From the IMG/VR virus record IMGVR_UViG_3300028909_000017, positions 61,415-125,414 of that record: a stretch of DNA of 64,000 bases. The stretch is one strand, 5' to 3'. Below the pieces are notes generated by a model. It was given only the letters and a program-made list of their open reading frames with translations, ran no database searches and was not told where the DNA came from. This document shows positions 3,274 through 63,201 of the stretch, one piece after another (position 1 is the first letter of the stretch; every line of letters begins with the position of its first letter). The position numbers were made by a program, and so were the translations under genes. Source of the stretch: a virus.

Positions 3274-4620
3274 TGTTATCCTTTGCTTTCTTCAAGATGA
3301 TGTTAATCCATAGCTGAATTATGCCCCATATTACAAAAATTACCAAGAAAAACCAATAAGATATATGCGCATTCAAAAATAGATTGGCAAAAAGAATTAA
3401 CGAGCAATTGACAATTATTAGATATGCGGTAATAAGAATACTTTTCATTTACGCTCGAAAAAATAACTCTTTCCATTGGTCAACGTCGAAAAATCCGGAA
3501 ATATAATCATTGATATACGCTACGGCGGGTGAAATGTACCATTCATATAAAAATGCGATATTTACCCACGAAGGACCATCAAGATCAAAATATATCGGCT
3601 GGGGAATAATGCGAAAAAATTGTAAAATAAAAAGAGAAGCCGAAACTAAAATTGCAGCAGAAATAATATCCTTTGACTTAAATGAAAACATATTTACCCT
3701 TTCTTAAGGTTGCTAGAGTTAAAATCATTGATAAGCCATCGATATGCACCAACATATGATGAAAATTTTGGAGAAATTTGAATATCTTCCGAGTTAATAA
3801 ATTTTGAAATACACCATTTATTCAACAAAATTCCGCATCTAACAATATTGAATTCTCGTTTGCCATCATAATATGGATTACAAAGTTTCTTCTTATTAAT
3901 TGTAATTCTTATGCTCATGTTGACAGCTTCATAATCATTAATTCATTTTTATATGCATTAAACAATTCTTCTAAATTCCATAACATTTGAATTGTACAAT
4001 CATTGTGAAGATTAATTATATCACAAATATTGTAAATGGTAACCCATTCTTTTGTTGTGTAATTTGTGCCTTTTGGCAAAGTTTCTGGACGTCTAAATGA
4101 TCTTCTATGAGTTAAAGGTTGACTACCGGTTAATAGAAGAATTAGTTTGCTTGCCTTTAAGACTCGTTCCTGCGCTGTACTTGTCGCCATTTTTATCGTC
4201 CGAAAAACCAATAAGGCAGTGTATTATCTCGTGAGCAAAAGAATGCAGTTGTTCGTTCAATGAATGTTGGTTCGGTATGATAGAATTGCTGATAGCGTTC
4301 TAGATAATATCGATATGTATCATTTGCTTGAATAATCATTTAATTTTCCAATCTGAAAAGAAATGCATCTTCTGGTTTTAGAATTGCAATTGTATACCAT
4401 GAATTTTGCAACTGCTCTTGAATAATTGAAATTTTCTTTAGCCAAGCAATTCCATATTTTTCAAAAATCCATTTATCATTTACGAAAATTAATTTTTTGA
4501 GTTCAGTCGGAAAAATGGCAAATGAATTTTTAAATCGTAATTTATTCAGGGTTGACTTTTTCAAAAAGTTCAATTCAACCAAATTAAAAACAGATGTCAT
4601 GTCTGGCATTATTTTTCCGA

Positions 4621-5241
4621 TCAGTTATTGTTTGGAAAACCGGATATAACCCGTATTAGATCAATTTGCGTGAGCAATACTTGTCGAATATTTTGATACG
4701 CGGATTCTTGCTCAGGAAAATTTTTACGTGCTTCTTTAAGCATGGGCAAAATATATTCCTCGGTTTCAGAAATATATGCCGATTGTTTTTCACGAGTAAA
4801 TACGCCTTGCATACGCTGATGATTATGAATTCGATCGATACCTTTGTTTAAACTTGCAATTGGATCAAACTGCATTTCGTGATAATAGCTTGCAGTCGGC
4901 TTTTTAATTCCGGATATCTGATTGGTCATCAATTCAACCGAATGACCAACTCGTCTTCCAAACAAATTAACGATTTCCTGGTTACTAACACCGTAATCTT
5001 CGCATACATCATGCAACCAGATCGTTGTCATCGTTTCTTCCGGATATTTAAAATCCTTTATTAAAGTTCGAGCATAATTTGCTTGGGATACCTGATGTTG
5101 AAATTCGGGTGTTACATTATCCTTACGAAAACCAATGTGCTTTTTACTGGCAAAATTCATTGCTCTCAATGCGTTATGAAAGCCACGGCCGACTTGCCAA
5201 TATTGAATAGCAATACGCAGTTTTTCGTAATTTTGAATCAT
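4621..5241 (-). CDS. HD-domain hydrolase, RelA/SpoT (Mesh1/SAH)-like
   Basis: FASKKHIGFRKD..TPEFQH, LHDVCED, KGIDRIHN; start moved to MIQNYE, downstream of the promoter. Confidence 0.75.
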   Translation of the reverse strand: MIQNYEKLRIAIQYWQVGRGFHNALRAMNFASKKHIGFRKDNVTPEFQHQVSQANYARTLIKDFKYPEETMTTIWLHDVCEDYGVSNQEIVNLFGRRVGHSVELMTNQISGIKKPTASYYHEMQFDPIASLNKGIDRIHNHQRMQGVFTREKQSAYISETEEYILPMLKEARKNFPEQESAYQNIRQVLLTQIDLIRVISGFPNNN

Positions 5242-5267
5242 TATGCTCTCTTTCCAGCAACAAATTA

Positions 5268-5602: not shown

Positions 5603-6385
5603 TTAAATTGTTCGTAGTGAATCTGCTAACTTGGAATTGTCCTTAACCAAGTAGCTTTTACCATCTGTCCAACATTCACGGTTGGTTGGTATTTTAACTA
5701 TATTTTTGATGGTTGTCAAATGAAAATTATTTCGAGTCGGTGACAACATTAAATTGAAAAATTTTAAAAAATCATCTGATGTTTTACACAATTGCAAACG
5801 ATCTATCATTTCTAGAGATAATTTCCAGGCACCCAAAGTAGCTATCAATTGGGCTTTATGCTGAACGCACGATGATATTAATGCGTTAAAACTATTAGAT
5901 GAAAGTCCACTTTGTTGTAGGGCCTCATTAAAGTCGGATGGACCGTCATCATTTAAATCAATTAGAGATTGCGACCACATATCATTATGAGAGCAGATAC
6001 CAATTTTTGAACCATTAACGGGAAATATAATATATAAACCACCAAACATACCGGAATAATTTCCAGCAACCATACTATTTGTTGTGCAAATTAAACTTGA
6101 ATCCCTTCGAGGAAATCTACGCCAACTCGGCAAATTACTGAATAATAATGTATAGTAATTTGATGTATTTGCGCTTTTTCTTTTGGACAATTTTGGATCA
6201 GTAATCCATATATCAGGAAATTTACCATTAAATCCTTTGTATAATGCTCTTTTATCCTGAACAAACGATTGAAATGCATCCGAACATTCTGTCTTAATTA
6301 TATTAAGTAATTCTTTCGGGTTACGTTTAGAAGTATCGATAATTCGTTTATCTGGTTCTTTAATTAATATTTCGTTAATTTTCAT
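5603..6385 (-). CDS. Hypothetical protein with MKINEI N-terminus, possibly ADP-ribosyltransferase fold
   Basis: Shared N-terminal motif; LYKG / SxICT / ECW spacing resembles R-S-E ARTs (weak). Confidence 0.4.
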   Translation of the reverse strand: MKINEILIKEPDKRIIDTSKRNPKELLNIIKTECSDAFQSFVQDKRALYKGFNGKFPDIWITDPKLSKRKSANTSNYYTLLFSNLPSWRRFPRRDSSLICTTNSMVAGNYSGMFGGLYIIFPVNGSKIGICSHNDMWSQSLIDLNDDGPSDFNEALQQSGLSSNSFNALISSCVQHKAQLIATLGAWKLSLEMIDRLQLCKTSDDFLKFFNLMLSPTRNNFHLTTIKNIVKIPTNRECWTDGKSYLVKDNSKLADSLRTI

Positions 6386-6406: not shown

Positions 6407-7090
6407 TTAAGTTCTTATTGTATTTATTTCCTTAAGCAAATTTTTCTTAGCTTGATTTTCCCATAGTAATTGTGAAATAGGTGATCTAAACAATGGTGTT
6501 TTCTGAAAAAATTTATTCAAAAATTCTTTGCGATTTTTATTAAATTCGACGTCTGAAACAAAAGAAAATTCTTTTCGAATATTTGTGGTATTTGTTGAAA
6601 ATTGTTCCCATTCGGCGCCCAAACCACATAAATCTAAATCAATAAATAAGTTAAAATCTGTCAAAAATCCATCATAGTAATCTAATTTTGGTTTAGCGTT
6701 AAGATGATCAGCCGTGCCTATAATCATATTTTCAACGACGGATACTTCCCAATTTGTTTCAAATTTATTATTTTGTAAAAATAATTGACAACTTTCGAAG
6801 ACATTAATAGAATCTTTTTGACAGTTTCCATCGGGCAATTGAGTTTTATAGATAGAATCATGCCAGAAAATAGCAGTTGCAATTAAATCGAATTGAACAG
6901 TCTGATTTTTTAATACATCTAATTTTCTTAACATATTTTCAATATGTTCCCAGGTATGATATGCTCGATGAGATTCAGAATAATTACGATTAAGAATATC
7001 CCATGATTCGGATTTATTTGAGACAGATAATTCATCCCATTTATTTTCGATATATTTAAGGTCAAACATTTCTATTCCTTTTTCTTTCAT
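6407..7090 (-). CDS. Predicted HD-superfamily metal-dependent hydrolase
   Basis: YSESHRAYHTWEHI, FWHDSIY, DLDL..LG, IRKEF motifs. Confidence 0.8.
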   Translation of the reverse strand: MKEKGIEMFDLKYIENKWDELSVSNKSESWDILNRNYSESHRAYHTWEHIENMLRKLDVLKNQTVQFDLIATAIFWHDSIYKTQLPDGNCQKDSINVFESCQLFLQNNKFETNWEVSVVENMIIGTADHLNAKPKLDYYDGFLTDFNLFIDLDLCGLGAEWEQFSTNTTNIRKEFSFVSDVEFNKNRKEFLNKFFQKTPLFRSPISQLLWENQAKKNLLKEINTIRT

Positions 7091-9134: not shown

Positions 9135-9226
9135 TGGAGTCACTGGAGAGATTCGAACTCGCAAAATTACTTTCGTAATTCTAACGGTTTTGCAGACCGC
9201 GGGCTTGCCATTTTGCCTTCAGTGAC
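9135..9226 (-). tRNA. tRNA-Cys(GCA) with long variable arm
   Basis: GTCACTG/CAGTGAC acceptor, U73, CCA, CT-GCA-AA loop, 8-bp variable stem with GAAA loop. Confidence 0.85.
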
Positions 9227-23183: not shown

Positions 23184-23269
23184 TGGGTGTCGGACGGAAA
23201 TCGAATCCGCGTTGCCTTAAGGCCCAGAGTCACAGTCTGGCGTAACAAACCAACAGTTACCTCCGACAC
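23184..23269 (-). tRNA. tRNA-His(GTG) with long variable arm
   Basis: GTGTCGG/CCGACAC-CCA, CT-GTG-AC loop, GCC-TTAA-GGC variable hairpin. Confidence 0.8.
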
Positions 23270-24021
23270 ACTTGCCGAACCGGTATAAACACGGTTCATA
23301 ATTTCACTTAATCCAATTCCATCGCCCTTGTTTTGGTGTAGTAGAATGTCCGGTTAATGATTCGGTCTCACTAATACTCGTAACCCAGAATGTATCATTG
23401 CCGTCTAAAAATACTTGCCCATTTACGCCTGATTTTCCCTCACCAAATTCATTTGGCCATACTCGTACAACAAGTAACGGCAATGTATCTCCAGCGGATG
23501 AGGTATTTCCAATATGAGCCTGAGCACCAATCGGCCAATGCTGAGGAACAACCGCACTACCAGTTAAAAATTCCCCCATTATGTTTAATACGATGAGCAA
23601 TGCTTTCCTTGGTTGTTCTACGTCGATTAATTTGGCTAGCATCTTCTTCCGTTAAAGTGTATTGAACGATGTCACCTACGGTTGGTTGAAAATTTTCCAT
23701 TAATTTATCCTTTTATATATTGTCCCGGCCCTACGCCCAATTGGGGTTTGAAATTTTTATCATTAATAGAATTACCGATACTTGCAATCAATTCATCGAT
23801 CGTATAATCAAAATCAGCTTCGTCCAAAAAGACGCAAACAAATTTCCCATCAATATTCAATTGTAATGCTAATTCATCGGTCCATCCATCGAGATCTGAA
23901 CCATATTTTGCATAGGTTATCGAGTGATGACATTTATTTGGGGGAGGAATTACGTGTTCTAACCTTTTTAAAAATTTAATTAGAAATGTTCTTTGATTCA
24001 TTATTGTCCTTTTTGAAAATG

Positions 24022-24103
24022 CTCCGGGAGAGGGATTCGAACCCCCACGCGATTTCTCTGCCTGATTCAGAGTCAGGTGCCCTGCCAATTAGGCTATCCC
24101 GGA
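24022..24103 (-). tRNA. tRNA-Gln(CTG) with long variable region
   Basis: U1-A72, G73, CT-CTG-AA, 14-nt variable region with GAAA loop. Confidence 0.85.
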
Positions 24104-25346: not shown

Positions 25347-26393
25347 TTATTGATTTCCTAATTTTTCGTATATCGTATTGTGAGTATGATTAACTCGAAC
25401 AAATGTTGTTTTTTCATTCATTTCTGAAATTTCATGGGCCCCAATATAGGTCATTGTACTTCGTAAACCACCAAGAATATCTAAAATAGTGCGTTCAACC
25501 GGTCCTTTTGCTGGCAACATTACATGTCGTCCTTCACTAGTTCGATATTTCGACATACCATTATTAAATTCTTGCATAGCTTTTTCACTGCTCATTCCAT
25601 AAAATTCTACAAATGTTTTTCCAGATGAATCGGTAACTTTTTTTGAATCAACTTCATCGTGTCCAGCTAACATTGATCCGAGCATTACAAAATCTGATCC
25701 CGCGCCAAATGCTTTTCCAATATCTCCCGGAGTTTTGCATCCACCATCTGAACAAATATATGCATTCATATCGTATGCAACTTCCGTGCATTCAATTAAC
25801 GCGCTAATCATTGGATAACCAACGCCTGTTTTTAATCGAGTCAGACATCCAGCCCCGCCCCCAATCCCACATTTAATTATCGAAGCGCCTGCATTAATTA
25901 ATGCAATAGTTTGATCTGGTGTTACAACATTACCCGCCATAATTATTGCGTCGGGATTTTCATTACGTAATTGTGAAACTGTATCAAGAAAAGTATTTCG
26001 ATATCCATTTGCAACATCGATACATATTTTGTCTATATTTTTATTATAATTAACTTTTTTAAATTTGTCAAGATCTTCTTTCTTTGATCCCACCGTGTAC
26101 CAACATAAATCTTTTGCTGGACTATTTTCAAAAAATTTCTGTAAATCATATTCAGAATAATATTTGTGTAACGCCGACATCATATTGTGTTTGGCCAATT
26201 CTTCCGCCATTTTAAAACTTGACACGGTTGTCATATTAGCAGAAATAATTGGGACACAAGACAATGTTTTTGTTGTATTAAGAAAGGTAAATTCTCTGAT
26301 TAAATTTACATCTGACCGTGAATTTAAATTATTAGGTTGGGGCACGATTAATACATCATCAAAATCTAATTTAATGTCGTTTAATATTTTCAT
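25347..26393 (-). CDS. guaC: GMP reductase
   Basis: KLDFDDVLI, IDVANGY, GIGGGAGCLTR, SDGGC, FYGMSS, YRTSEG. Confidence 0.9.
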   Translation of the reverse strand: MKILNDIKLDFDDVLIVPQPNNLNSRSDVNLIREFTFLNTTKTLSCVPIISANMTTVSSFKMAEELAKHNMMSALHKYYSEYDLQKFFENSPAKDLCWYTVGSKKEDLDKFKKVNYNKNIDKICIDVANGYRNTFLDTVSQLRNENPDAIIMAGNVVTPDQTIALINAGASIIKCGIGGGAGCLTRLKTGVGYPMISALIECTEVAYDMNAYICSDGGCKTPGDIGKAFGAGSDFVMLGSMLAGHDEVDSKKVTDSSGKTFVEFYGMSSEKAMQEFNNGMSKYRTSEGRHVMLPAKGPVERTILDILGGLRSTMTYIGAHEISEMNEKTTFVRVNHTHNTIYEKLGNQ

Positions 26394-31420: not shown

Positions 31421-31575
31421 AATATCTTGGACTTACGGCGGAGAATGATAGAAGCATCATCTATCAAGAAGGAGAGCAGCATCCTAGTTCTTATGCGCAT
31501 TATCATCTAGGCCCTCGCTCTTAGTGCGACCTCTTCCGACTGAGCTGTCGTTCTCTCCCGTAAATCCACGATATT
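31421..31575. ncRNA. Candidate structured ncRNA with ~31-bp closing stem
   Basis: Imperfect terminal inverted repeats AATATCTTGGACTTACGG... / ...CCGTAAATCCACGATATT. Confidence 0.5.
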
Positions 31576-33509: not shown

Positions 33510-34430
33510 TTACTCTAACAATTTAATTTCTTCCGGAAGGATTCCAAATGTTTCCCACCAAAATTCCGGACCACGATCTTTAAATTTTTTCCAAACTTTA
33601 TGACCGTCACTTAATTTTTTATTCATAAGAATTACTTCTGCTTCCATCAATTCTTTAAATGAAAACATTTTAAAATCTTTTTCGTCTTTAATAAACCTTC
33701 GAATTAATTTCCTACAAATATATTGTTTACCTTTTCCACCAGGAAAAATATTTTGAGATATTAAAAGTCTGATTGTTCTTAAATGATCTCGGCTTATGGG
33801 AGATAAATTTTGGTCAAATAAAGAGCTTTCATCTACCCTACTACAACCTCCAATTAATTGAATCAATCTTTCAAAACCAAATCCAACATCAATAGAATGC
33901 TTATTAGGATTTACCAAATTACCTATTTCTAATTTATTGCTGAACATTTCACAACAATAATCACCATTGTCGGTTTCACATGATTTCCATATACATTCCG
34001 AATCGAATTTTGTTTTAAATCCCAATTTAACCCAAATATTTTGATGATTGGACATCGGATTACACGTTACATAATCAATATTAATTCCCAAATTATTAAT
34101 AATATTTGACCACATTTCGCAATGTTGTTCGTAATTATTGGTACCGAATCCAAAACTACCAACCATAGTAAAACTAGTTAGATGAGATCCATCTCCGACT
34201 AAATCGATATCATTTGTTCGAATACATTTTTGAAAAGTGCCCAACTGTGTTTTATTGGGATTATTGAATAAATGCTTTAATGGCTGCATTCCAGAACATA
34301 TAAATAATGTACTTTTGTCAATATCATTTGGAATAATGTTATTATTGGTTGACCAGATAATATTATTTTTTCTAAATTCATCGGTAATCACATTGATTAC
34401 TGATTTCGAATTGTGTCCTGCTGTGTACAC
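33510..34430 (-). CDS. Truncated alanyl-tRNA synthetase (catalytic domain only)
   Basis: LFICSGMQPLK, QKCIRTNDIDLVGDGSHLTSFTMVG, IDVGFGFERL, DHLRT; no editing or C-Ala domain. Confidence 0.85.
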   Translation of the reverse strand: MYTAGHNSKSVINVITDEFRKNNIIWSTNNNIIPNDIDKSTLFICSGMQPLKHLFNNPNKTQLGTFQKCIRTNDIDLVGDGSHLTSFTMVGSFGFGTNNYEQHCEMWSNIINNLGINIDYVTCNPMSNHQNIWVKLGFKTKFDSECIWKSCETDNGDYCCEMFSNKLEIGNLVNPNKHSIDVGFGFERLIQLIGGCSRVDESSLFDQNLSPISRDHLRTIRLLISQNIFPGGKGKQYICRKLIRRFIKDEKDFKMFSFKELMEAEVILMNKKLSDGHKVWKKFKDRGPEFWWETFGILPEEIKLLE

Positions 34431-36351: not shown

Positions 36352-36428
36352 TGGTGGCCCAAGTGGAATTTGAATCCACAATCTTTTCCTTGAAAGGGAA
36401 ATGTCCAAACCAATTAGACGGTTGGGCC
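36352..36428 (-). tRNA. tRNA-Glu(TTC)
   Basis: Cloverleaf, CT-TTC-AA, CCA. Confidence 0.9.
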
Positions 36429-38880: not shown

Positions 38881-38962
38881 TTCAAAAATTTAATTATTAC
38901 GTCTGGGATCAAACCAGCACCTCCGGACTCCACGCCCGGTGTTCAGCACAGTATCGGTTTCG

Positions 38963-38994
38963 TAATTCATAAATGTCGCGACATTTATGAATTA
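38963..38994. repeat. Perfect 32-bp palindrome
   Basis: TAATTCATAAATGTCG|CGACATTTATGAATTA. Confidence 0.95.
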
Positions 38995-39071
38995 ATTCCT
39001 ACCGTTTAGCCCCGGGATGCACAAGTGCCCCCGCTATTCCCCCGATCTTTTGAACTTCGCAATAAACTTGT

Positions 39072-42732: not shown

Positions 42733-42825
42733 TGGTGCGACCGGTGAGATTTGAACTCACGGTGGGAGAATTACTCTCCATCAGATTAAGAGTCTGGTCT
42801 CTGCTAGCCTCTCGAGTACGATCGC
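42733..42825 (-). tRNA. tRNA-Lys(CTT) with long variable arm
   Basis: CT-CTT-AA; GGAGA-GTAAT-TCTCC variable hairpin; A73-CCA. Confidence 0.85.
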
Positions 42826-42898
42826 ATTTTAAAATCGTTACCAATTTTTAACCCTTGAATTTTTCCTGTATGTTTCGTTCGCGTGTGCTATAAACTAT

Positions 42899-42973
42899 TG
42901 TCAGAGTGAGTCTCGACCTCACATTTCCCAGGCTTACAGCCGTAAGGGCGTCTTACCATTAAACTATCTGACT
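42899..42973 (-). ncRNA. tRNA-like RNA with aberrant anticodon arm
   Basis: GTCAGA/TCTGAC acceptor, D and T arms present, extended CCCTTACGGCTGTAAGCCTGGG arm. Confidence 0.55.
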
Positions 42974-43315
42974 AGCTCGAGACTTCTACTCGAGATCGCT
43001 TCACAATGTCAAAAAGCGTTTGAATCGATTAAAATTTGTTTAAAGACCGAATAAAGTCAAGAGGTAAACTATCATCCCACCCTTTATTGCTACTCCACTT
43101 TTCTATAGTGTCAATATACATTGCAACAAATATACATAGAATCATTGGGCTAATAGTCAATAAAACAACCAAATAAAAAATCTTAAATATTAATCTTACA
43201 ACAAATTTCATATTATCCTTTCTTAAATTATTTGCTGATACTTATCACGTATCAATCTCAACATTCAATATTATCGAACTGTCGACTGTCGTCATGCTCG
43301 ACCCACAAATAAAGT

Positions 43316-43450
43316 TGGCTGAAGGGGTGGGATTCGGACCCACAATGACTTTCATCGCTCGGTTACTTTTGGTCTTACTGGAATCAAACCAGCATAATGC
43401 AAACCTGCGAGACCCACAGCCGAGTGCCTTACCATTCGGCACACCCTTCA
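43316..43450 (-). tRNA. tRNA-Asn(GTT) interrupted by 50-nt insertion in the anticodon; long variable region
   Basis: TGAAGGG/CCCTTCA-G-CCA; CTCGG-CT-GT[50 nt]T-AA-CCGAG. Confidence 0.75.
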
Positions 43451-43635
43451 AAAATTCATTTTTTAAGTTTCATCATATATCTTTTTCTGACAGTATAAAC
43501 ATATATGCCGCATATTTATTTCCCTGTAAATTTCTTCATCAAATGGATCAGCAACGTATTCTACATCTGGTTTAACTTCACCACATTCATCGCAAGTTGA
43601 TTCATGATCCATAATGTTCTCCAATCACTATTTAA

Positions 43636-43665
43636 ATAGTATCATATCTGCCATTAAATTGTCAA
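43636..43665 (-). promoter_or_regulatory. sigma70-type promoter
   Basis: TTGACA-18-TACTAT. Confidence 0.6.
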
Positions 43666-43674
43666 TCTGAAATT

Positions 43675-43748
43675 CGGTTCTGACAAAATTCGAATTTGCA
43701 TCTTTCTCCGTGACAAGGAGACGCTCTATCCAGTTAAGCTACAGAACC
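43675..43748 (-). tRNA. tRNA-Asp(GTC)
   Basis: Cloverleaf, TT-GTC-AC, G73. Confidence 0.9.
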
Positions 43749-43753
43749 ATTAT

Positions 43754-43834
43754 TGCGGTTGATAGGATTTGATACCTATACTAAAGTGGAAGAAATCATC
43801 TACCCACTGCCTCTGTTGTTTGGGCTACAACCGC
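43754..43834 (-). ncRNA. tRNA-like RNA (Leu-like body, elongated anticodon arm)
   Basis: GCGGTTG/CAACCGC-A acceptor, T arm, AGTGGGTAGA-TGAT-TTCTTCCACT arm without a canonical loop. Confidence 0.55.
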
Positions 43835-43846
43835 AAATTTTAAAAT

Positions 43847-43932
43847 TGGTCAGAGCGGAGAGATTCGAACTCTCGATACCCGAAGGTGCCGCGCCCCAAA
43901 CGCGGAGGCAAACCAGACCTGCCGCCGCTCTG
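43847..43932 (-). tRNA. tRNA-Pro(TGG) with long variable arm
   Basis: C1-G72, TT-TGG-GG, ACC-TTCG-GGT variable hairpin, A73-CCA. Confidence 0.85.
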
Positions 43933-43954
43933 ACATTTAAATTTCTGAAAGTAT

Positions 43955-44041
43955 TGGAGCGGGTGAGGAGATTTGAACTCCCAGTGATTTTTCAATCTCC
44001 GGTTTGGAAGACCGGTTCCATACCAAATAGGATTCACCCGC
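43955..44041 (-). tRNA. tRNA-Gly(TCC) with long variable arm
   Basis: GCGGGTG/CACCCGC-T-CCA, CT-TCC-AA, GATT-GAAA-AATC variable hairpin. Confidence 0.85.
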
Positions 44042-44049
44042 ATGTTAAA

Positions 44050-44586
44050 TTAATTTCGTTTAAAACTCTTATGTGTTTTCCAAAAATCTGATCGACATTC
44101 CGGTGGAATTACATCCAATCCTAATTTTTCAAAAACATCGTTTTCTGTTTTGCTTGCAACACTAATGCCGTTTTTAAACAGACCATATTGATTCAATTTC
44201 TCAAAACCTTTATTCTTGCAATATGTCCTTAAACTGATATTGAACTGGGCATTTCCCGTTGCATGAATGCAAGCTGAACCAAAACTATCTAACGGAACGG
44301 TAATAAATTCAACTCTTACGGTCTTGTTTTCAAATACAATATCCAAACTCAAAAGTGCATCACCGCTTCGTACAATTGTATAAGGATAAACATTTTTGAT
44401 GATAAAGAGTAAATCATTAATTGAACAATCCGTTACAACAATATCCAAATCACCGATTTCTTCTTTATGTCGTCTCCATGAACCACAAACCTTATGATTG
44501 ATATTATTTTTATCTAAAATCGTTTGATATTTTTGAATAATTTCAGACGCTTGAATTCTCGAAATTTTGTTTTCAGTTTGCGACAT
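44050..44586 (-). CDS. Minimal DNA polymerase X (palm plus C-terminal domain only)
   Basis: CGSWRR...GDLDIVV, HATGNAQFN..LR, LNQYGLF, IPPECR. Confidence 0.85.
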   Translation of the reverse strand: MSQTENKISRIQASEIIQKYQTILDKNNINHKVCGSWRRHKEEIGDLDIVVTDCSINDLLFIIKNVYPYTIVRSGDALLSLDIVFENKTVRVEFITVPLDSFGSACIHATGNAQFNISLRTYCKNKGFEKLNQYGLFKNGISVASKTENDVFEKLGLDVIPPECRSDFWKTHKSFKRN

Positions 44587-45342: not shown

Positions 45343-45352
45343 GGTATGCTGT

Positions 45353-45422
45353 TAGTTACAATGGGATTCGAACCCATAACCACGGCTCAACCGCCGTTGC
45401 TCTACCATTGAGCTATGTAATT
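45353..45422 (-). tRNA. Pseudo-tRNA with 6-nt anticodon loop
   Basis: Canonical D and T arms; ACGGC-GGTTGA-GCCGT anticodon arm. Confidence 0.55.
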
Positions 45423-45658
45423 ATTAAGCATACCAATTTCAAAAATTTATTGCTATGGAACTCTTATCCTGGATAAACAAGACGGTTTAATTGTATCAAT
45501 CCTATTCAGCCATTCTATCTAAACTGTATTGCTCTGGAATTGAAACGACGGATAACTCACGCAGGGATTTATTGAGCAGACGCTTATTCATCCATTCCAG
45601 TTAAATCTAAACTTTGCCAGTATTTCAGGCCACTAGCCAGACCTAAATAACATCATTT

Positions 45659-51711: not shown

Positions 51712-53133
51712 CTAAACTTCAGCAAGTGAACGAATTTCATCAAGAGTCTGGTGGCGAATAACTTTCCCATTACGAAAGACCAATTCTAATTGATCTCCAT
51801 ATACACCATTTCCAGATTCATCCTGCACTGTGCTAAACAAACCGGTACTTTCAGAATAAATTAATACTGGCCGACCTTTGAATGATGCCTTTGTTGGATC
51901 TCCCTTTGGCTGCTTAAATACCGGAGTATCTACATCATTGAGTCGAATATTACAGAATTTCATTGCCGATTTCATTGAATCTCTGTTTACTTTTTGCAGA
52001 AGTCCACCGCCCATACCCACGATAACATTTTCCACACTCCAACCAGATAACCTCAGTGTTTCATATAATTTGCGAATGCTAAAAATATCCATACCATCGC
52101 CCCAAAGTAATCCAACACAAGGGCTAAGAACTTTAAAACCTTTACTATTGACGGTATAGCCAAATTTTTCAGCCAAGATGTCGAGTAAAATTGGAACCTT
52201 GATTGATGGATCTCCTGAATCTGGACGGGCAACAACTTTTGTTTTACCATGAAGAATTTGATCACGGAAAGTTCCACCCATAATTTCTCGAACGAAATAT
52301 TCATCATCGTAACTATCAATAACCATACTTACAACCGGCGCATCTTTATAAACTCCCAAAATTCGACTAACAACATTTCGTTCGCCGTTAGGACCTTCCA
52401 TCGTCATTACAAAATGCTCACTAGCAGGAACACTATAAGCTGATACGCGAGGAGCATCATAATATTGATGCAGCAAACTCATTGCAATTCCGGTATCTGT
52501 TCCCTTAAAATTAATAAGATGCGCAGCTCCGCCAATAGCTGCCTGTGTTCCACAAGATACCGCTCGCCCACCAAAATCATGCAACATGAACGGTAAGCCA
52601 TCATAAGATTCGGATGTAATAGTAAGATATTCCTTGGCTAACTTTTTAACTTCCCGACTCTGCGTAGCAACGATACTCCCGTACCAATTACGCATGAATC
52701 GAGTTTCACACCATCCGGGCAGCCATGCACAATTTTCATCGGTACTTTCAACCGTGAAAACAACATTATTAACGCCGTTATTGGAAATATTAAATGGGCG
52801 TCCTTCCTTGATTGCACGAATTTCAATCGGAAGTCTCCCATCATATTTGTCAAGAATATATTGCCATTGTGCCTTAGGGTATGGGAATCCATCATAAAAA
52901 TGGACCTGACTGTCAGCATATGCTTCGTCAAGATTTTCCTGAGTGAAGAATTTGCCTTCAAATTCGGCCATTAATTGATATTGCAATCCAAAAAATACGG
53001 CTTCGCTATAAATACCTCCTCGATTGCAATAATAATTCATTGCTTGTGAAAGAGTATGTGGGAGCATCGCGGGGTGGGTTTTTTTGTAGGAATCGTCATC
53101 AAGAAGCGGATTAATTACGAGTGGTTGTGGCAT
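51712..53133 (-). CDS. nadV: Nicotinamide phosphoribosyltransferase
   Basis: DSYKKTH, LHDFGGR, GTDT, VPASEH, RPDSGDP, GDG, GMGGGLLQ. Confidence 0.95.
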   Translation of the reverse strand: MPQPLVINPLLDDDSYKKTHPAMLPHTLSQAMNYYCNRGGIYSEAVFFGLQYQLMAEFEGKFFTQENLDEAYADSQVHFYDGFPYPKAQWQYILDKYDGRLPIEIRAIKEGRPFNISNNGVNNVVFTVESTDENCAWLPGWCETRFMRNWYGSIVATQSREVKKLAKEYLTITSESYDGLPFMLHDFGGRAVSCGTQAAIGGAAHLINFKGTDTGIAMSLLHQYYDAPRVSAYSVPASEHFVMTMEGPNGERNVVSRILGVYKDAPVVSMVIDSYDDEYFVREIMGGTFRDQILHGKTKVVARPDSGDPSIKVPILLDILAEKFGYTVNSKGFKVLSPCVGLLWGDGMDIFSIRKLYETLRLSGWSVENVIVGMGGGLLQKVNRDSMKSAMKFCNIRLNDVDTPVFKQPKGDPTKASFKGRPVLIYSESTGLFSTVQDESGNGVYGDQLELVFRNGKVIRHQTLDEIRSLAEV

Positions 53134-57399: not shown

Positions 57400-58503
57400 T
57401 TACCTTCTTGGATAACGTAATTCGGAACTATAGTCTGTTAATTCCGCTGCGCGATCGTTCATTTCCATAATAATAGAACCTTCATCCGGATATGAATCGA
57501 TAATTGATTTATTGTTAATATTCCGATTACTATATAAATAATTTTTTAACATTTTATATAAGATCTTATGTTCGGGTTCAAACATATCTAATGTTACCTC
57601 TTCTAATGGGAAAAATTTTGTATAAGAAATATCATCTCCACCGGTTGTTTCCAACGTGGGAACTTCACCCAAAAAGAAAATAGTCTTTATTGTTTCAGAA
57701 GTATCCTTATATCTCCAATCGGCAATTTGTGTACTTCCGATATATTTAAATGATTGCGGAGCAGTAGATGTTTCCTCGTAACTTTCCATTTTGGCGTCAT
57801 CTTCATAACCAACATTTTCCGGCTTCATCTTACCCATTGCATGACCACCCGGGAATCTCCACCCATTTTCGTCAGATCGTTTCGCTAGCAGTAATTCAAT
57901 ACCAGATGAAAGATATGTATCTGTATTGGGATCATGTGTAGACAGTCCTCGATGAATAATAGCAATATCAACAGTGGGGATTACGCGGTCGAATGTATTT
58001 CTTGTCGCGTAAATAATACCTGCTCGAAAGGAAGGACTATCTATCACAACATTTGTTGCCGCATTTCGTAAGTCTGCTGCGGAAATATTTGGAGATACCG
58101 GCAATGTTAATTCAACAACTTTTCGATGCCCATGATAACTTTTAAGAAAGGAATCTCGACTGCCATATAATGTCGCTTTTCCATATGGAACTCGTTCGGT
58201 AATTAACCGGTCAAGATCAGCACTCCACAATTCATCTGTCTTCCGATTATGGATGGGATAAACTTCATAATTTGGATACGCATTCTGAATCATTTTACGG
58301 CGGGTTTCGAAATCCAATGGATCATTTTTTGTCGGAGCCGTGCCACCTGGCAAGCAACCAACAAAAATAATAACCCGAGGATGAAGATTTCCAACCGCAT
58401 CTAGTAGAGCAATATGACCTTCATGCAACTCTGGAATTTGAAACCGACCAATCAAAACTCCGTAATTCGGTGCCGTAATATTTGACATTATTTTCCCTTT
58501 CAA
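57400..58503 (-). CDS. Bifunctional NMN adenylyltransferase/Nudix hydrolase (NadM-Nudix)
   Basis: IGRFQ..HEGH, NDPLDFETR, SRDSF; Nudix-like FPGG...MESYEET. Confidence 0.9.
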   Translation of the reverse strand: MKGKIMSNITAPNYGVLIGRFQIPELHEGHIALLDAVGNLHPRVIIFVGCLPGGTAPTKNDPLDFETRRKMIQNAYPNYEVYPIHNRKTDELWSADLDRLITERVPYGKATLYGSRDSFLKSYHGHRKVVELTLPVSPNISAADLRNAATNVVIDSPSFRAGIIYATRNTFDRVIPTVDIAIIHRGLSTHDPNTDTYLSSGIELLLAKRSDENGWRFPGGHAMGKMKPENVGYEDDAKMESYEETSTAPQSFKYIGSTQIADWRYKDTSETIKTIFFLGEVPTLETTGGDDISYTKFFPLEEVTLDMFEPEHKILYKMLKNYLYSNRNINNKSIIDSYPDEGSIIMEMNDRAAELTDYSSELRYPRR

Positions 58504-60234: not shown

Positions 60235-63201
60235 TTAATTTTCAAGGTACCATTGGAAAATATCTTTTTCCAATATTTTCGTTACTTTCAACCACCAGTT
60301 TTCTTTCCGATTTTTTACGGTAACAATAAGAAAATTATTAGTTGTATCGATGCTGTATATATGACCCAATTCGGTTCCAAATATTGTTGTGTGTATTACC
60401 CAATCTCCAACTTTTAATTCTGTCCCATTTTTATCGAGCATTTTCATTGCTCCAATTTTTTAACCATAAGATAAGAAATAGCTTTTTCCTCGGATACAAT
60501 TACAACTTTACTGGTCTTCTGAATTCCGCCCCAACGAATATCATTTTCGGTGATCAATAAAATTTTTGTTTTTAAAATGGCATCGACTTTTAATAATATC
60601 AAATCCTGACCCTTATAACCAGGAGTTAATACCCAATCTCCAACTTTTAATTCTATTCCGAAAAAATCTTTCATCATTTCTCCAGTAAATAAATCAATAC
60701 TTCATTCTTATTTAATTTCTCAACTTTTGTCGAAATAATTGATCTATTGAAGTAACCATCTTGTAAATATAGATCTAGAAAATTAAAACCAATAATTCGA
60801 TAAATTTCCGATTTAAATCTAACATAATCAAAAATTTCCAATTCATTCCCATTTTTATCGATCATTGCGATAATCTCCAAATCATTATTTCATCCTGGGT
60901 AATTTTAATAACTCTTCCGGATTCGATTAATGTTCCCAATAAATCAGAGGTAATATGAACGCTTTTATCATAAAATGCATCAATACAGCATGGCACCGGG
61001 AAATATGGTATATAAACCCAATCGCCAATGTTTAATTTTGCTCCGTTTTTATCGACCATTTAATGTTCCAATCTCCAAATCAGATAATTTTTTAATAGAA
61101 GATAATTTCCATCTTTCTGCAAATTTTGTTTCCGAATTAATAAATAGATTAATTATGCAACATTCATTACGAATCGATTTAATTTTACCAACGGCACCAC
61201 GGCGCATATCTTTACACCATAAAACATAATCACCGATTAATAATTCGTTTCCATTCTTATCTGTCATATTTTCACTGTGTTAGTTTAAAAATTAAAGCAT
61301 CTTCGGGATTCATTTTGTACAATGCGCTGAAATATTTTAACGATTGTGTTTGCCCTTTTTCATTTTTTAGTTCAACCATTTTCTTCGTAAATCGTACTAC
61401 GTAACCGATATCCAATGAATTTGCCCAATTAGAGAAAACAACCCAATCACCAATAAACAGAGGGCGATTAATTCGATCAACAAAAATATGTTCATTATTC
61501 ATAAATTTCCTTAGTAAGACAACAAATATGCAATTAATTCATCTTCAGACGACAGTTCCATTTCAGATGCCTTTAAATGTATATTCTTGAAAAAATCTAA
61601 TGGTATAAAATCTGATCGACATTCAAAAAATTTGGATTTAATATCTTCGTCCGTAATTCTTCCAAAATACAATTCACGATCGAATTGTATTTTTACAATG
61701 TCGCCTATATGCAATTGATTATTATTTTTGTCAACCATTATTCACTCAATTTCCAAACTATCAATTCTTCTTCTGTCGCGTATTCAACTTTTGTTCGAAT
61801 TAAATAGCACCGTTCATTCTTAGATAAATGTTTTATATTAATATATTGACGATAATAAGGTTTTTGAATACCTACCCCGATATTATATTCAAGATGATAA
61901 GGTTCTGGAATATGACTACCCCGACTCTACGAACACCATAAGGATCCAAATAAAAAACTTTATCACCCCTTTAATTCCCTCCCGTTCTTATCGATAACAG
62001 TTGTCAAAATTTTCCCTCGTTGCGATTAATGGATATGTTTCTTTATAAATTTCAAATCGTTTTTCATAACTGTATAATTTCCATTGAAATTTCAATGGAA
62101 AAATTATATCATAAGATATTAATTCCGAAATTAACGAAATGGGACCCATAATAGACAACCATAAACATATTTTAAAATTATTCATATACGGAAATCTACG
62201 AGCCCATCCGTTAACGGAAAGTCCCCACGTAATAATCGAACATACAACCCAAAAAATAATGAAACCAATAATAATCATTGTTACTCCTTTTCTAGCATAT
62301 ATATTAATGCTTCAGATTTTGAAAGTTTTTGAATAGCAGCGGTCTTATAATAAATTTTTTGATTCAATTTAAAATTTGCCGAATCAAAATTTTTAATTTC
62401 AAAAATTCCGTGTGAAATATCAATAATTTTTCCGAGTCTACCATAAATTATAATATAATTCCCTTTATGCAATTTTCTACCAAACAAATCAACCATCATA
62501 ATATTCTCCCAAAATTATTCTGCCAGTCTATATGCAACCATTTCTTCTTCAGTAAGTTTTACAATTTGAGAACCTTTAACTGGAAAAATTGAGCCGGCCT
62601 TCCTATAAGAATAATCTTCAAATACCACTATCCAAATATTGTCGCACCACCATTCACCTATCTTCTTAATTTTTCCCGGGATCGGATTTAAATCCAAAAA
62701 TATTATATAATCATTAACCTCAACGTGATTATTATTTTTGTCGACCATTATTCATTCACCCAATCGATAAACAACCATTTCTTCTTCACTCAATAATTGC
62801 AAATCTTTTTCATTAACACAAAATCCACGGCCAGCTTTAAAAGCTGAAAAATTTTCAAACAAAATAATTAAAGGATAGCCATCATTGTGATTTTTAAAAA
62901 TACGACCCGGTATATCGTGGTATAAAATATAATCGTCTTTGTAAAAAGTTTTCACAATTATTCCTCCAAGCGTGAAATTAATACGTAATTTTCCGAAATA
63001 AATTCAATTTCAACACTACTACGCCAATAATCAGTGTGATTATATTCCAATATTGCAACATCATATGAATTAATAGTATCACCGAAAATTCGGGAAGTAT
63101 CTGTTATTTTTGAATACGATTATATCGGTAAAAATTTTCCCATCTCTGAGTCAATTTAACCCAATCCCCGACTTTTAATTCAATGCCGTTTTTGTCTGTC
63201 A
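60235..63201 (-). other. Tandem array of ~12 small paralogous ORFs (MxDKNGxELxxGDxV...Y/WxLE)
   Basis: Shared start and end motifs; dispersed relatives at 36429, 41589, 42113 and 48022. Confidence 0.75.

Follow-up and report, generated by a model that had tools for sequence, protein, structure and literature searches.

A tRNA-like candidate intron within the anticodon of a tRNA-Asn gene from a large peat phage

Passages of the report on Lak megaphages describe the introns in their tRNA genes as 'enigmatic' and note that one may itself encode a tRNA (Devoto et al. 2019, PMC6784885), and a passage of a 2026 survey says that jumbo-phage tRNA introns 'could encode another tRNA' (PMC13037316). In the literature outside subscription journals and supplements, we found neither a mechanism nor an experiment for tRNA-like phage introns. 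Here we describe a further example of this known but unexplained kind: a tRNA-Asn gene that is split inside its anticodon by a 50-nucleotide (nt) insert, on the minus strand at positions 43316-43450 of a 64,000-nt stretch of viral DNA that we call the window. The window is the second half of IMG/VR record IMGVR_UViG_3300028909_000017 (positions 61,415 to 125,414); the whole record is 125,414 bp long with 34% G+C and a CheckV completeness estimate of 59%, and the minus strand carries every gene around the split tRNA. The evidence tilts slightly toward a functional phage tRNA-Asn(GUU) gene with a protein-spliced, non-ribozyme, tRNA-shaped intron between U35 and U36. The insert is best read as a member of the barely described class of tRNA-like introns in large-phage tRNAs, those called 'enigmatic' in Lak.

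Compared by description only, and within the passages concerned (PMC6784885, PMC13037316), the insert resembles the Lak and jumbo-phage introns in being a short anticodon-loop insert in a large-phage tRNA, present or absent between relatives, that Rfam cannot classify and that is itself tRNA-like. It differs from the introns described there in having only the top half of a tRNA, with no anticodon arm, no call by ARAGORN and a tail of AAAG instead of CCA. Unlike the Lak phages, this phage comes from peat and the open reading frames (ORFs) of its record read open under the standard code.

To our knowledge, bacteria and phages are thought to splice tRNAs only by way of self-splicing group I introns. 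These introns occur in the anticodon loops of bacterial, cyanobacterial and phage tRNAs, have a conserved P1-P9 core, are about 200 nt or longer, and are often mobile and linked to homing endonucleases. The Asn insert likewise interrupts an anticodon loop, but it is 50 nt long and has no Rfam match. In phage T4, Pnkp and Rnl1 reseal tRNA-Lys that has been cut by PrrC, the sealing of an anticodon-loop nick being the natural reaction of Rnl1, and the T4 tRNA cluster also holds SegB, a free-standing homing nuclease. The record is similar in encoding an Rnl1-type ligase, a second ligase and Pnkp, and related phages have free-standing nuclease genes inside their tRNA arrays. However, T4 repairs a break made by a host defense nuclease in a mature tRNA, whereas we propose programmed processing of a gene-encoded insert. 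Finally, in collaborative homing, known from cyanophage psbA, a free-standing homing endonuclease is combined with an intron that splits its target site. A likeness to this arrangement exists in a related phage, in which a T5orf172 nuclease gene lies 28 nt downstream of a tRNA-Lys that carries an insert, but the window's record has the insert and no such nuclease.

The split gene and its uninterrupted homologues

With introns allowed (option -i), ARAGORN reports tRNA-Asn(gtt) at c[43316,43450] with i(36,50), which places the insert at 43366-43415, after base 35. These are exactly the coordinates that a sequence-only reading of the window by a model had proposed. Default ARAGORN and the Rfam tRNA model at its gathering score both miss the gene, and the best Rfam match at this site is to tRNA-Sec (18.1 bits, E 0.63) and leaves a gap of 55 nt in the anticodon loop. 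When the record was shuffled 20 times with dinucleotides preserved, ARAGORN -i called no tRNA, with or without an intron, so that permitting introns does not by itself account for the Asn call.

The two exons together form a complete tRNA body, read on the minus strand from 43450 to 43316. The 5' exon (43416-43450) contains the 5' strand of the acceptor stem, the D arm, the 5' strand of the anticodon stem and bases C32, U33, G34 and U35. The 3' exon (43316-43365) begins with U36, A37, A38 and the 3' strand of the anticodon stem and continues through a long variable arm, the T arm, the 3' strand of the acceptor stem, G73 and CCA. All four cloverleaf stems are fully paired according to ARAGORN: the acceptor stem is UGAAGGG/CCCUUCA with U1-A72, the D stem UGCC/GGCA, the anticodon stem CUCGG/CCGAG and the T arm GUGGG-UCCGAAU-CCCAC. 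The anticodon loop reads C-U-G-U, then the 50-nt insert (43415 to 43366), then U-A-A. Removing the insert yields the loop CUGUUAA with anticodon GUU, which together with G73 and U1-A72 gives the features of a bacterial-type tRNA-Asn as they are known from Escherichia coli. Sequence and ARAGORN thus bear out the intact body, with U1-A72, G73 and CCA, that had been noticed at first sight.

The long variable arm (GAUGA-AAG-UCAUU) is atypical for a tRNA-Asn, though an uninterrupted Asn homologue in another viral contig (L016, below) has one as well. Long variable arms are normally confined to Leu, Ser and Tyr tRNAs. In the window, long hairpin arms are also found on the tRNAs for Cys (9135-9226), His (23185-23269), Gln (24021-24103), Lys(CTT) (42733-42825), Pro(TGG) (43847-43932) and Gly(TCC) (43958-44041).

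Default ARAGORN lists 29 tRNA genes and Rfam adds five more, none of them at 43316-43450. The split gene had been called the only Asn gene beside genes for the other 19 amino acids, and this is true of the whole record, itself 59% complete, in which we found no second standard tRNA-Asn. Coverage of Glu comes from a gene detected only by Rfam (36355-36428), and one caveat to the claim is a tRNA-like gene at 45351-45423 with the 6-nt loop GGUUGA. Asn makes up 7.5% of codons in the 60 ORFs of at least 200 amino acids (aa).

A Pol-beta-like nucleotidyltransferase encoded 600 nt from the split gene led to a related phage (61% protein identity), represented by locus L005, which is the same as G001, and by locus L013, from a 292,778-bp contig. 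L013 and the window have in common the order Asn, an odd tRNA, Lys-CTT, Lys-TTT and Ile-TAT. The L013 Asn gene (3302-3377) is the positional orthologue of the split gene and is uninterrupted; the two genes share UGA at the 5' end, the unusual stretch GTGGGTCCGAATCCCA and TCAGCCA at the 3' end. A closer homologue, the L016 Asn gene (6493-6584), is also uninterrupted and has about 80% exon identity as read from the alignment. The stems of the split gene and these homologues differ by paired changes. The 5' exon aligns with both uninterrupted genes up to C(Y)GT, and where L016 and L013 have the loop C-C-G-U-U-A-A, the window gene has C-U-G-U and U-A-A on either side of its 50 nt. By this comparison the insert can lie only between bases 35 and 36; because MAFFT misplaces the gap, the boundaries were set by eye from the loops. 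Asn(GTT) genes with and without the insert thus exist among relatives, and the claim of a clean 50-nt insertion into an Asn anticodon stands.

The loop bases also permit a splice at the canonical 37/38 position, giving CUGUGGA or CUGUGAA and hence a tRNA-His(GUG). Such a product would lack the G-1/C73 pair of tRNA-His, and by the familiar identity rules G73 and U1-A72 match Asn. Because the uninterrupted homologues are Asn(GTT) genes and the window has its own tRNA-His, a separate gene called by ARAGORN at 23185-23269, we treat the His alternative as excluded for practical purposes, in agreement with the sequence-only reading, which had favored Asn.

The motif TTTGTGGGYCGAGCATGACGRCAGT stands directly after the Asn gene in the window (43276-43302, minus strand). 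In L013 (~4110-4140), it follows a nuclease gene that sits after the Asn gene, and the placement looks as if the nuclease gene had been inserted between Asn and motif. Two small ORFs that flank the split gene (53 and 60 aa) matched no Pfam family and showed no likeness to the nuclease profile described below.

Fold of the insert and a second insert in tRNA-Lys

The fold that had been proposed for the insert, with a GGUCU/AGACC stem around a small hairpin and a mimic of a T arm, is also the one predicted by RNAfold. The first insert base, G1 (43415), lies opposite A46. The 5' strand of the closing stem, GGUCU (insert bases 2-6, 43410-43414), belongs to the minimum free energy (MFE) structure with a mean pair probability of 0.55 in the precursor, and its 3' strand, AGACC (bases 41-45), occupies 43371-43375. 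Within the closing stem lie the hairpin GCA-GGUU-UGC (43399-43408, pair probability 0.55), possibly a mimic of the D loop with its GG, and the T-arm mimic (43376-43394, pair probability 0.95), which consists of a 6-bp stem (U22-A40 to G27-C35) and the 7-nt loop UUUGAUU. The T-arm mimic abuts the closing stem directly, so that G1 opposite A46, 5 bp and 6 bp form 12 stacked layers with an unbroken 3' strand up to a 7-nt loop of the UUNRA type; the acceptor/T domain of a tRNA has 7+5 layers. A46 is followed by a single-stranded 4-nt tail, A-A-A-G (43366-43370 including A46), which sits where a tRNA has its discriminator and CCA. The tail can also pair with loop bases 32-35 (C-G, U-A, a G/A mismatch and U-A).

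The mini-tRNA look claimed for the insert is therefore real as far as top-half geometry goes, yet the insert has no anticodon arm and no CCA, and no tRNA finder calls it. Folded alone it has an energy of -13.8 kcal/mol (z -1.89), which is only mildly unusual, because 10 of 200 shuffles fold equally well. The nested fold of cloverleaf plus mini-tRNA reaches -43.9 kcal/mol against an MFE of -46.9, a gap within 3 kcal/mol, and apart from the T-mimic stem the precursor helices have pair probabilities of 0.46-0.93. Hairpins of the T type (a 5-bp stem with the loop TTNRANN) occur 46 times outside tRNA and tRNA-like genes over both strands of 125 kb, from which we calculate an expectation of about 0.006 per 50-nt insert.

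A second insert interrupts the tRNA-Lys(UUU) of the related phage (L005/L013), a gene that scores 52.7 bits with Rfam and that we take to be strongly E. coli-like. This insert is 61 nt long and likewise separates bases 35 and 36 of the anticodon. In it, G1 faces A57, the closing stem comprises 4 bp, the T arm (GCCAG-UUCGAAU-CUGGC) is perfect and the tail consists of the 4 nt CGGG. The Asn and Lys inserts have no sequence in common but follow one layout: G1 opposite A, a closing stem of 4-5 bp, a T-type hairpin, a 4-nt tail ending in G, and a 3' exon that starts U36-A37-A38. The same architecture at exactly the same position, without likeness in sequence, suggests an old and maintained design.

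Further copies were sought in several ways. Exact scans of viral contigs for the insert and for the 3' exon gave 0 matches each, as did a degenerate T-arm/3'-end pattern, and a degenerate 5'-exon pattern matched only L016 and L017. Searches by blastn of 50,697 cultured-phage records with a 1.1-kb region, the gene and the Lys gene returned no interrupted homologue; they matched tRNA genes of Pseudomonas and Stenotrophomonas phages only over short stretches of the T arm or 3' end. Among loci that carry the T5orf172 nuclease gene (below), ARAGORN -i recovered the known Lys insert and flagged three others, which we set aside: in L026 (7542-7648), an insert of 32 nt at 34/35 that lacks a T-type hairpin and is a different kind of interruption; a doubtful 27-nt insert in L027; and a 2-nt artefact in L018. 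In an Rfam search of 12 of the 16 tRNA-bearing loci, the L026 case was the only one longer than 100 nt among the matches listed.

The insert might instead never be removed, so that the 135-nt RNA serves as a stable, non-decoding tRNA look-alike, a decoy or shield with a tRNA body that might bind or divert an anticodon nuclease, modification enzyme or synthetase of the host. Phage tRNAs are known to counter anticodon nucleases, and the window holds at least three other tRNA-shaped genes with abnormal loops: 42898-42973, with a 5-nt anticodon loop on an extended stem; 43754-43834, with a 14-nt loop; and 45351-45423, with the loop GGTTGA and an 8-bp acceptor stem. None of these loops is usable. 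The odd loop of the first is conserved, as its L013 orthologue (4243-4315) also has an abnormal, 6-nt one. From several such genes in one window it follows that the phage keeps non-decoding tRNA look-alikes. Nevertheless, we consider it unlikely that the split Asn gene is one of them: its flanks together restore a perfect 7-nt loop whose anticodon is precisely the one that the phage otherwise lacks, Asn codons are abundant, the homologues are ordinary decoding tRNAs, and a typical tRNA-Lys in a related phage is interrupted at 35/36 as well.

Enzymes and routes for removing the insert

The sequence-only reading had noted that 50 nt is far too short for a group I or II intron. We agree, since such introns are much larger and a search of 43150-43650 against 4227 Rfam models at E<=10 returned no intron or ribozyme, only the weak tRNA-Sec match and chance matches. 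Although group I introns do occur in the anticodon loops of bacterial and phage tRNAs, an RNA that cleaves or splices itself, whether a group I/II intron or a small ribozyme, is thus very improbable here.

Small size and anticodon-loop position also recall archaeal tRNA introns, which would be excised from a bulge-helix-bulge by splicing endonuclease and joined by RtcB. Neither the endonuclease (tRNA_int_endo, PF01974) nor RtcB (PF01139) was found in the 59% complete record. The four-layer helix of loop bases 32-35 with the tail has 3-nt unpaired stretches 3' of each strand, which, as we read the sequence, is the opposite hand to a bulge-helix-bulge. With neither motif nor enzyme, and as had been supposed at the outset, an archaeal-type route deserves almost no weight. 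A CCA-adding enzyme of the bacterial, class II type that also has an HD domain (G000:C1, about 37.4-38.7 kb), the ClpX-like protein of the window and transfer-messenger RNAs (tmRNAs) in related arrays all point to a bacterial host.

Excision by RNase P and RNase Z had been suggested, and the insert agrees in part with the first of these enzymes at its 5' boundary and misfits the second at its 3' boundary. A bacterial RNase P substrate has a 12-bp acceptor and T stack, a T loop, G at +1, U at -1 and a 3' RCCA. The insert offers 12 layers, the first a G/A mismatch, with U35 at -1, G1 at +1 and the tail A-AAG without CCA. RNase Z usually cuts 1 nt past the helix, directly after the discriminator base; because the exon boundary that yields a 7-nt loop lies 3 nt beyond this point, we do not name the enzyme of the 3' cut. 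RNase III, which makes staggered cuts with a 2-nt 3' overhang on long duplexes, was considered and rejected, since the boundaries would leave a 4-nt 3' overhang. A terminator-like hairpin across the 5' junction was taken as chance (one match against 0.6 expected).

Genes for sealing exist in the record upstream of the window, in an RNA repair cassette at about 53.0-58.3 kb (G000:C1) that encodes an Rnl1-type ligase, a second ligase with RNA_ligase and PHA02142 domains, a Pnkp with kinase and HAD_PNKP phosphatase, and an HNH nuclease; the two ligases occupy about 53.0-54.1 kb and 55.2-56.3 kb. A search for RtcB, Rnl and Pnk genes, as proposed with the first description of the insert, thus succeeded for the ligases and Pnkp and failed for RtcB. 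The two ligases and Pnkp could seal a nick in the anticodon loop.

In the spliced-intron reading that we favor, the precursor would fold as a cloverleaf with the mini-tRNA nested in its anticodon loop. Host RNase P would cut between U35 and G1, the first base of the mini-tRNA, leaving a 3'-OH on the 5' exon. A second endonuclease would cut between G50 and U36, after the 4-nt tail, leaving a 5'-phosphate on the 3' exon. The phage Rnl1-type ligase would then reseal the loop to CUGUUAA, with Pnkp available if the ends need healing.

Several observations weigh against this reading. The ligases and Pnkp do not prove splicing, because T4-like phages keep such enzymes for tRNA repair, which would explain them equally well here. 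No gene for an RNase Z-type metallo-beta-lactamase (Lactamase_B_2) was found in the record, and the exon boundary misses the usual RNase Z cut. The insert ends in AAAG and not CCA, and its fold z-score is weak. The Lys insert is less tRNA-like, with 17 nt between T hairpin and closing stem, and folds no better than its shuffles. The scans described above found no second copy of the Asn insert, and no further tRNA-shaped insert appeared in 12 nuclease-bearing arrays (among the 150 of 219 Rfam matches listed) or in 5 whole records (129 Rfam matches, the longest tRNA match 97 nt). The other tRNA-like genes with unusable anticodon loops in the window, and the absence of a T5orf172 gene from the record (tblastn), belong on the same side. 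Lastly, there is no RNA evidence of splicing: RNA contigs of three peat metatranscriptomes cover 42881-43160, 43688-44008 and 44154-44459 of a 2.1-kb stretch, with no joints, and do not reach the split gene. They leave 43161-43687 uncovered and are neutral on splicing; a contig in an RNA library is in any case not proof of transcription.

T5orf172 nucleases beside tRNA-Asn genes

In the related phage, genes for T5orf172/MUG113 nucleases adjoin both tRNA genes that concern us here. One starts 28 nt downstream of the interrupted tRNA-Lys (L005/L013), and a paralogue follows the uninterrupted L013 Asn gene; in L013 the two nuclease genes are at 3348-3989 and 4702-5247. A profile of this nuclease identified 54 loci in IMG/VR. 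According to ARAGORN -i, tRNA genes occur in the flanks of 16 of these loci (up to 32 in 12.5 kb) and in none of the flanks of the other 38. Dropping the duplicates L017, L022 and L030 left 13 arrays, and in 7 of the 13 the nuclease gene lies directly beside a tRNA-Asn gene, against 1.03 expected; P is about 1e-5 if loci are independent, which related phages are not. In L016-L029, the nuclease genes lie around position 6000. Permuted tmRNA genes are present in three of the nuclease-bearing arrays, at 7678-7947 in L026, 9641-9895 in L027 and 7981-8333 in L029.

The anticodon loops of these Asn genes vary. Next to a nuclease gene, the loop is CCGUUAA in L016 and L029 (L013 has it as well), CAGUUAA in L018, UUGUUAC in L019, L023 and L025, and UUGUUAA in L021. 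Asn genes that are not adjacent have CUGUUAA in L020, L024 and L027 and CCGUUAA in L026, where the nuclease gene is 111 nt away. CTGTTAA is thus avoided in 7/7 nuclease-adjacent loci and in L013, and present in 3/4 non-adjacent ones. U33 is nearly universal in tRNAs, and C or A in its place in several divergent Asn genes suggests pressure on the loop sequence. This pressure could come from T5orf172 nucleases, at the level of DNA, or from anticodon nucleases, at the level of RNA. The window gene keeps CUGU and UAA but has them split by the insert, and this splitting of the loop may be linked to the same pressure. Considered as DNA, the insert is probably selfish or protective and tied to homing nucleases of the T5orf172 type, which settle beside tRNA-Asn and tRNA-Lys genes in phage arrays.

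Clustering of homing-type nucleases at tRNA-Asn genes in related arrays also bears on the possibility that the split gene is dead: a tRNA fragment or small mobile DNA would have landed in the loop, perhaps when a nuclease cut was repaired, and inactivated the gene, leaving the phage to use the host's tRNA-Asn. The insert does consist of a T arm and a 3' acceptor-like strand, like a tRNA 3' fragment, and the gene lies where the RNA contigs give no evidence of expression. However, the stems of the tRNA body are all intact, no donor tRNA with the T arm of the insert is present in G000, G001 or L013 (the closest candidates differ at 2-3 of 17 positions), and the Lys insert repeats architecture and exact position in another sequence. 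A dead gene strikes us as quite unlikely, more so than a look-alike kept on purpose.

Joining the RNA and DNA sides, we tentatively suggest that tRNA-shaped inserts at 35/36 mark a third route of tRNA splicing in phages of bacteria, one that needs neither a ribozyme nor the splicing-endonuclease family and works through RNase P, an endonuclease that trims 3' ends and an Rnl1-type ligase, and that the insert shields its gene from T5orf172 nucleases. The 3' cut, four bases past the helix, would be made by a host endonuclease that trims tRNA 3' ends, and the nucleases would target the anticodon-loop sequence of Asn and Lys genes in competing phages. Taken as a whole, this combined proposal is possible but doubtful.

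Some further features of the window lie outside this argument. An intergenic stretch at 38900-39045 (minus strand) begins with GGGGAAUAGCGGGGG and ends in a T-type hairpin, GCUGG-UUUGAUC-CCAG; called by neither ARAGORN nor Rfam, it is possibly a further RNA related to tRNA. Immediately upstream of tRNA-Val, a G+C-rich block (31463-31560, minus strand) matches G001 at 86650-86748 with exact runs of up to ~30 nt, though proteins are only ~61% identical. The block, closed by a GGAGAG...CUCUCC pair, matches nothing in Rfam at E<=1 and may be an undescribed small RNA. A 306-aa protein (33510-34430) contains a fragment of a class II alanyl-tRNA-synthetase core. Auxiliary genes include a GMP reductase/IMPDH-like gene (25347-26393), NAMPT (51712-53133), a NUDIX and cytidylyltransferase-like gene (57400-58503) and the ClpX-like ATPase (273-1493).

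To the class of tRNA-like phage introns, the split Asn gene adds a case from a peat jumbo phage whose ORFs are open in the standard code, in which close homologues without the insert define its boundaries to a single base. It also adds a pair of unrelated inserts that agree in their 35/36 position and in the architecture of their ends, and a statistical link between T5orf172 nucleases and tRNA-Asn genes with C33 or A33, which offers a testable reason for the insert. A ribozyme-free 50-nt insert in an intact and needed tRNA implies either an unrecognized, protein-based form of splicing or deliberately non-decoding tRNA look-alikes. The protein-based route would combine ordinary tRNA-processing enzymes with a phage RNA ligase.

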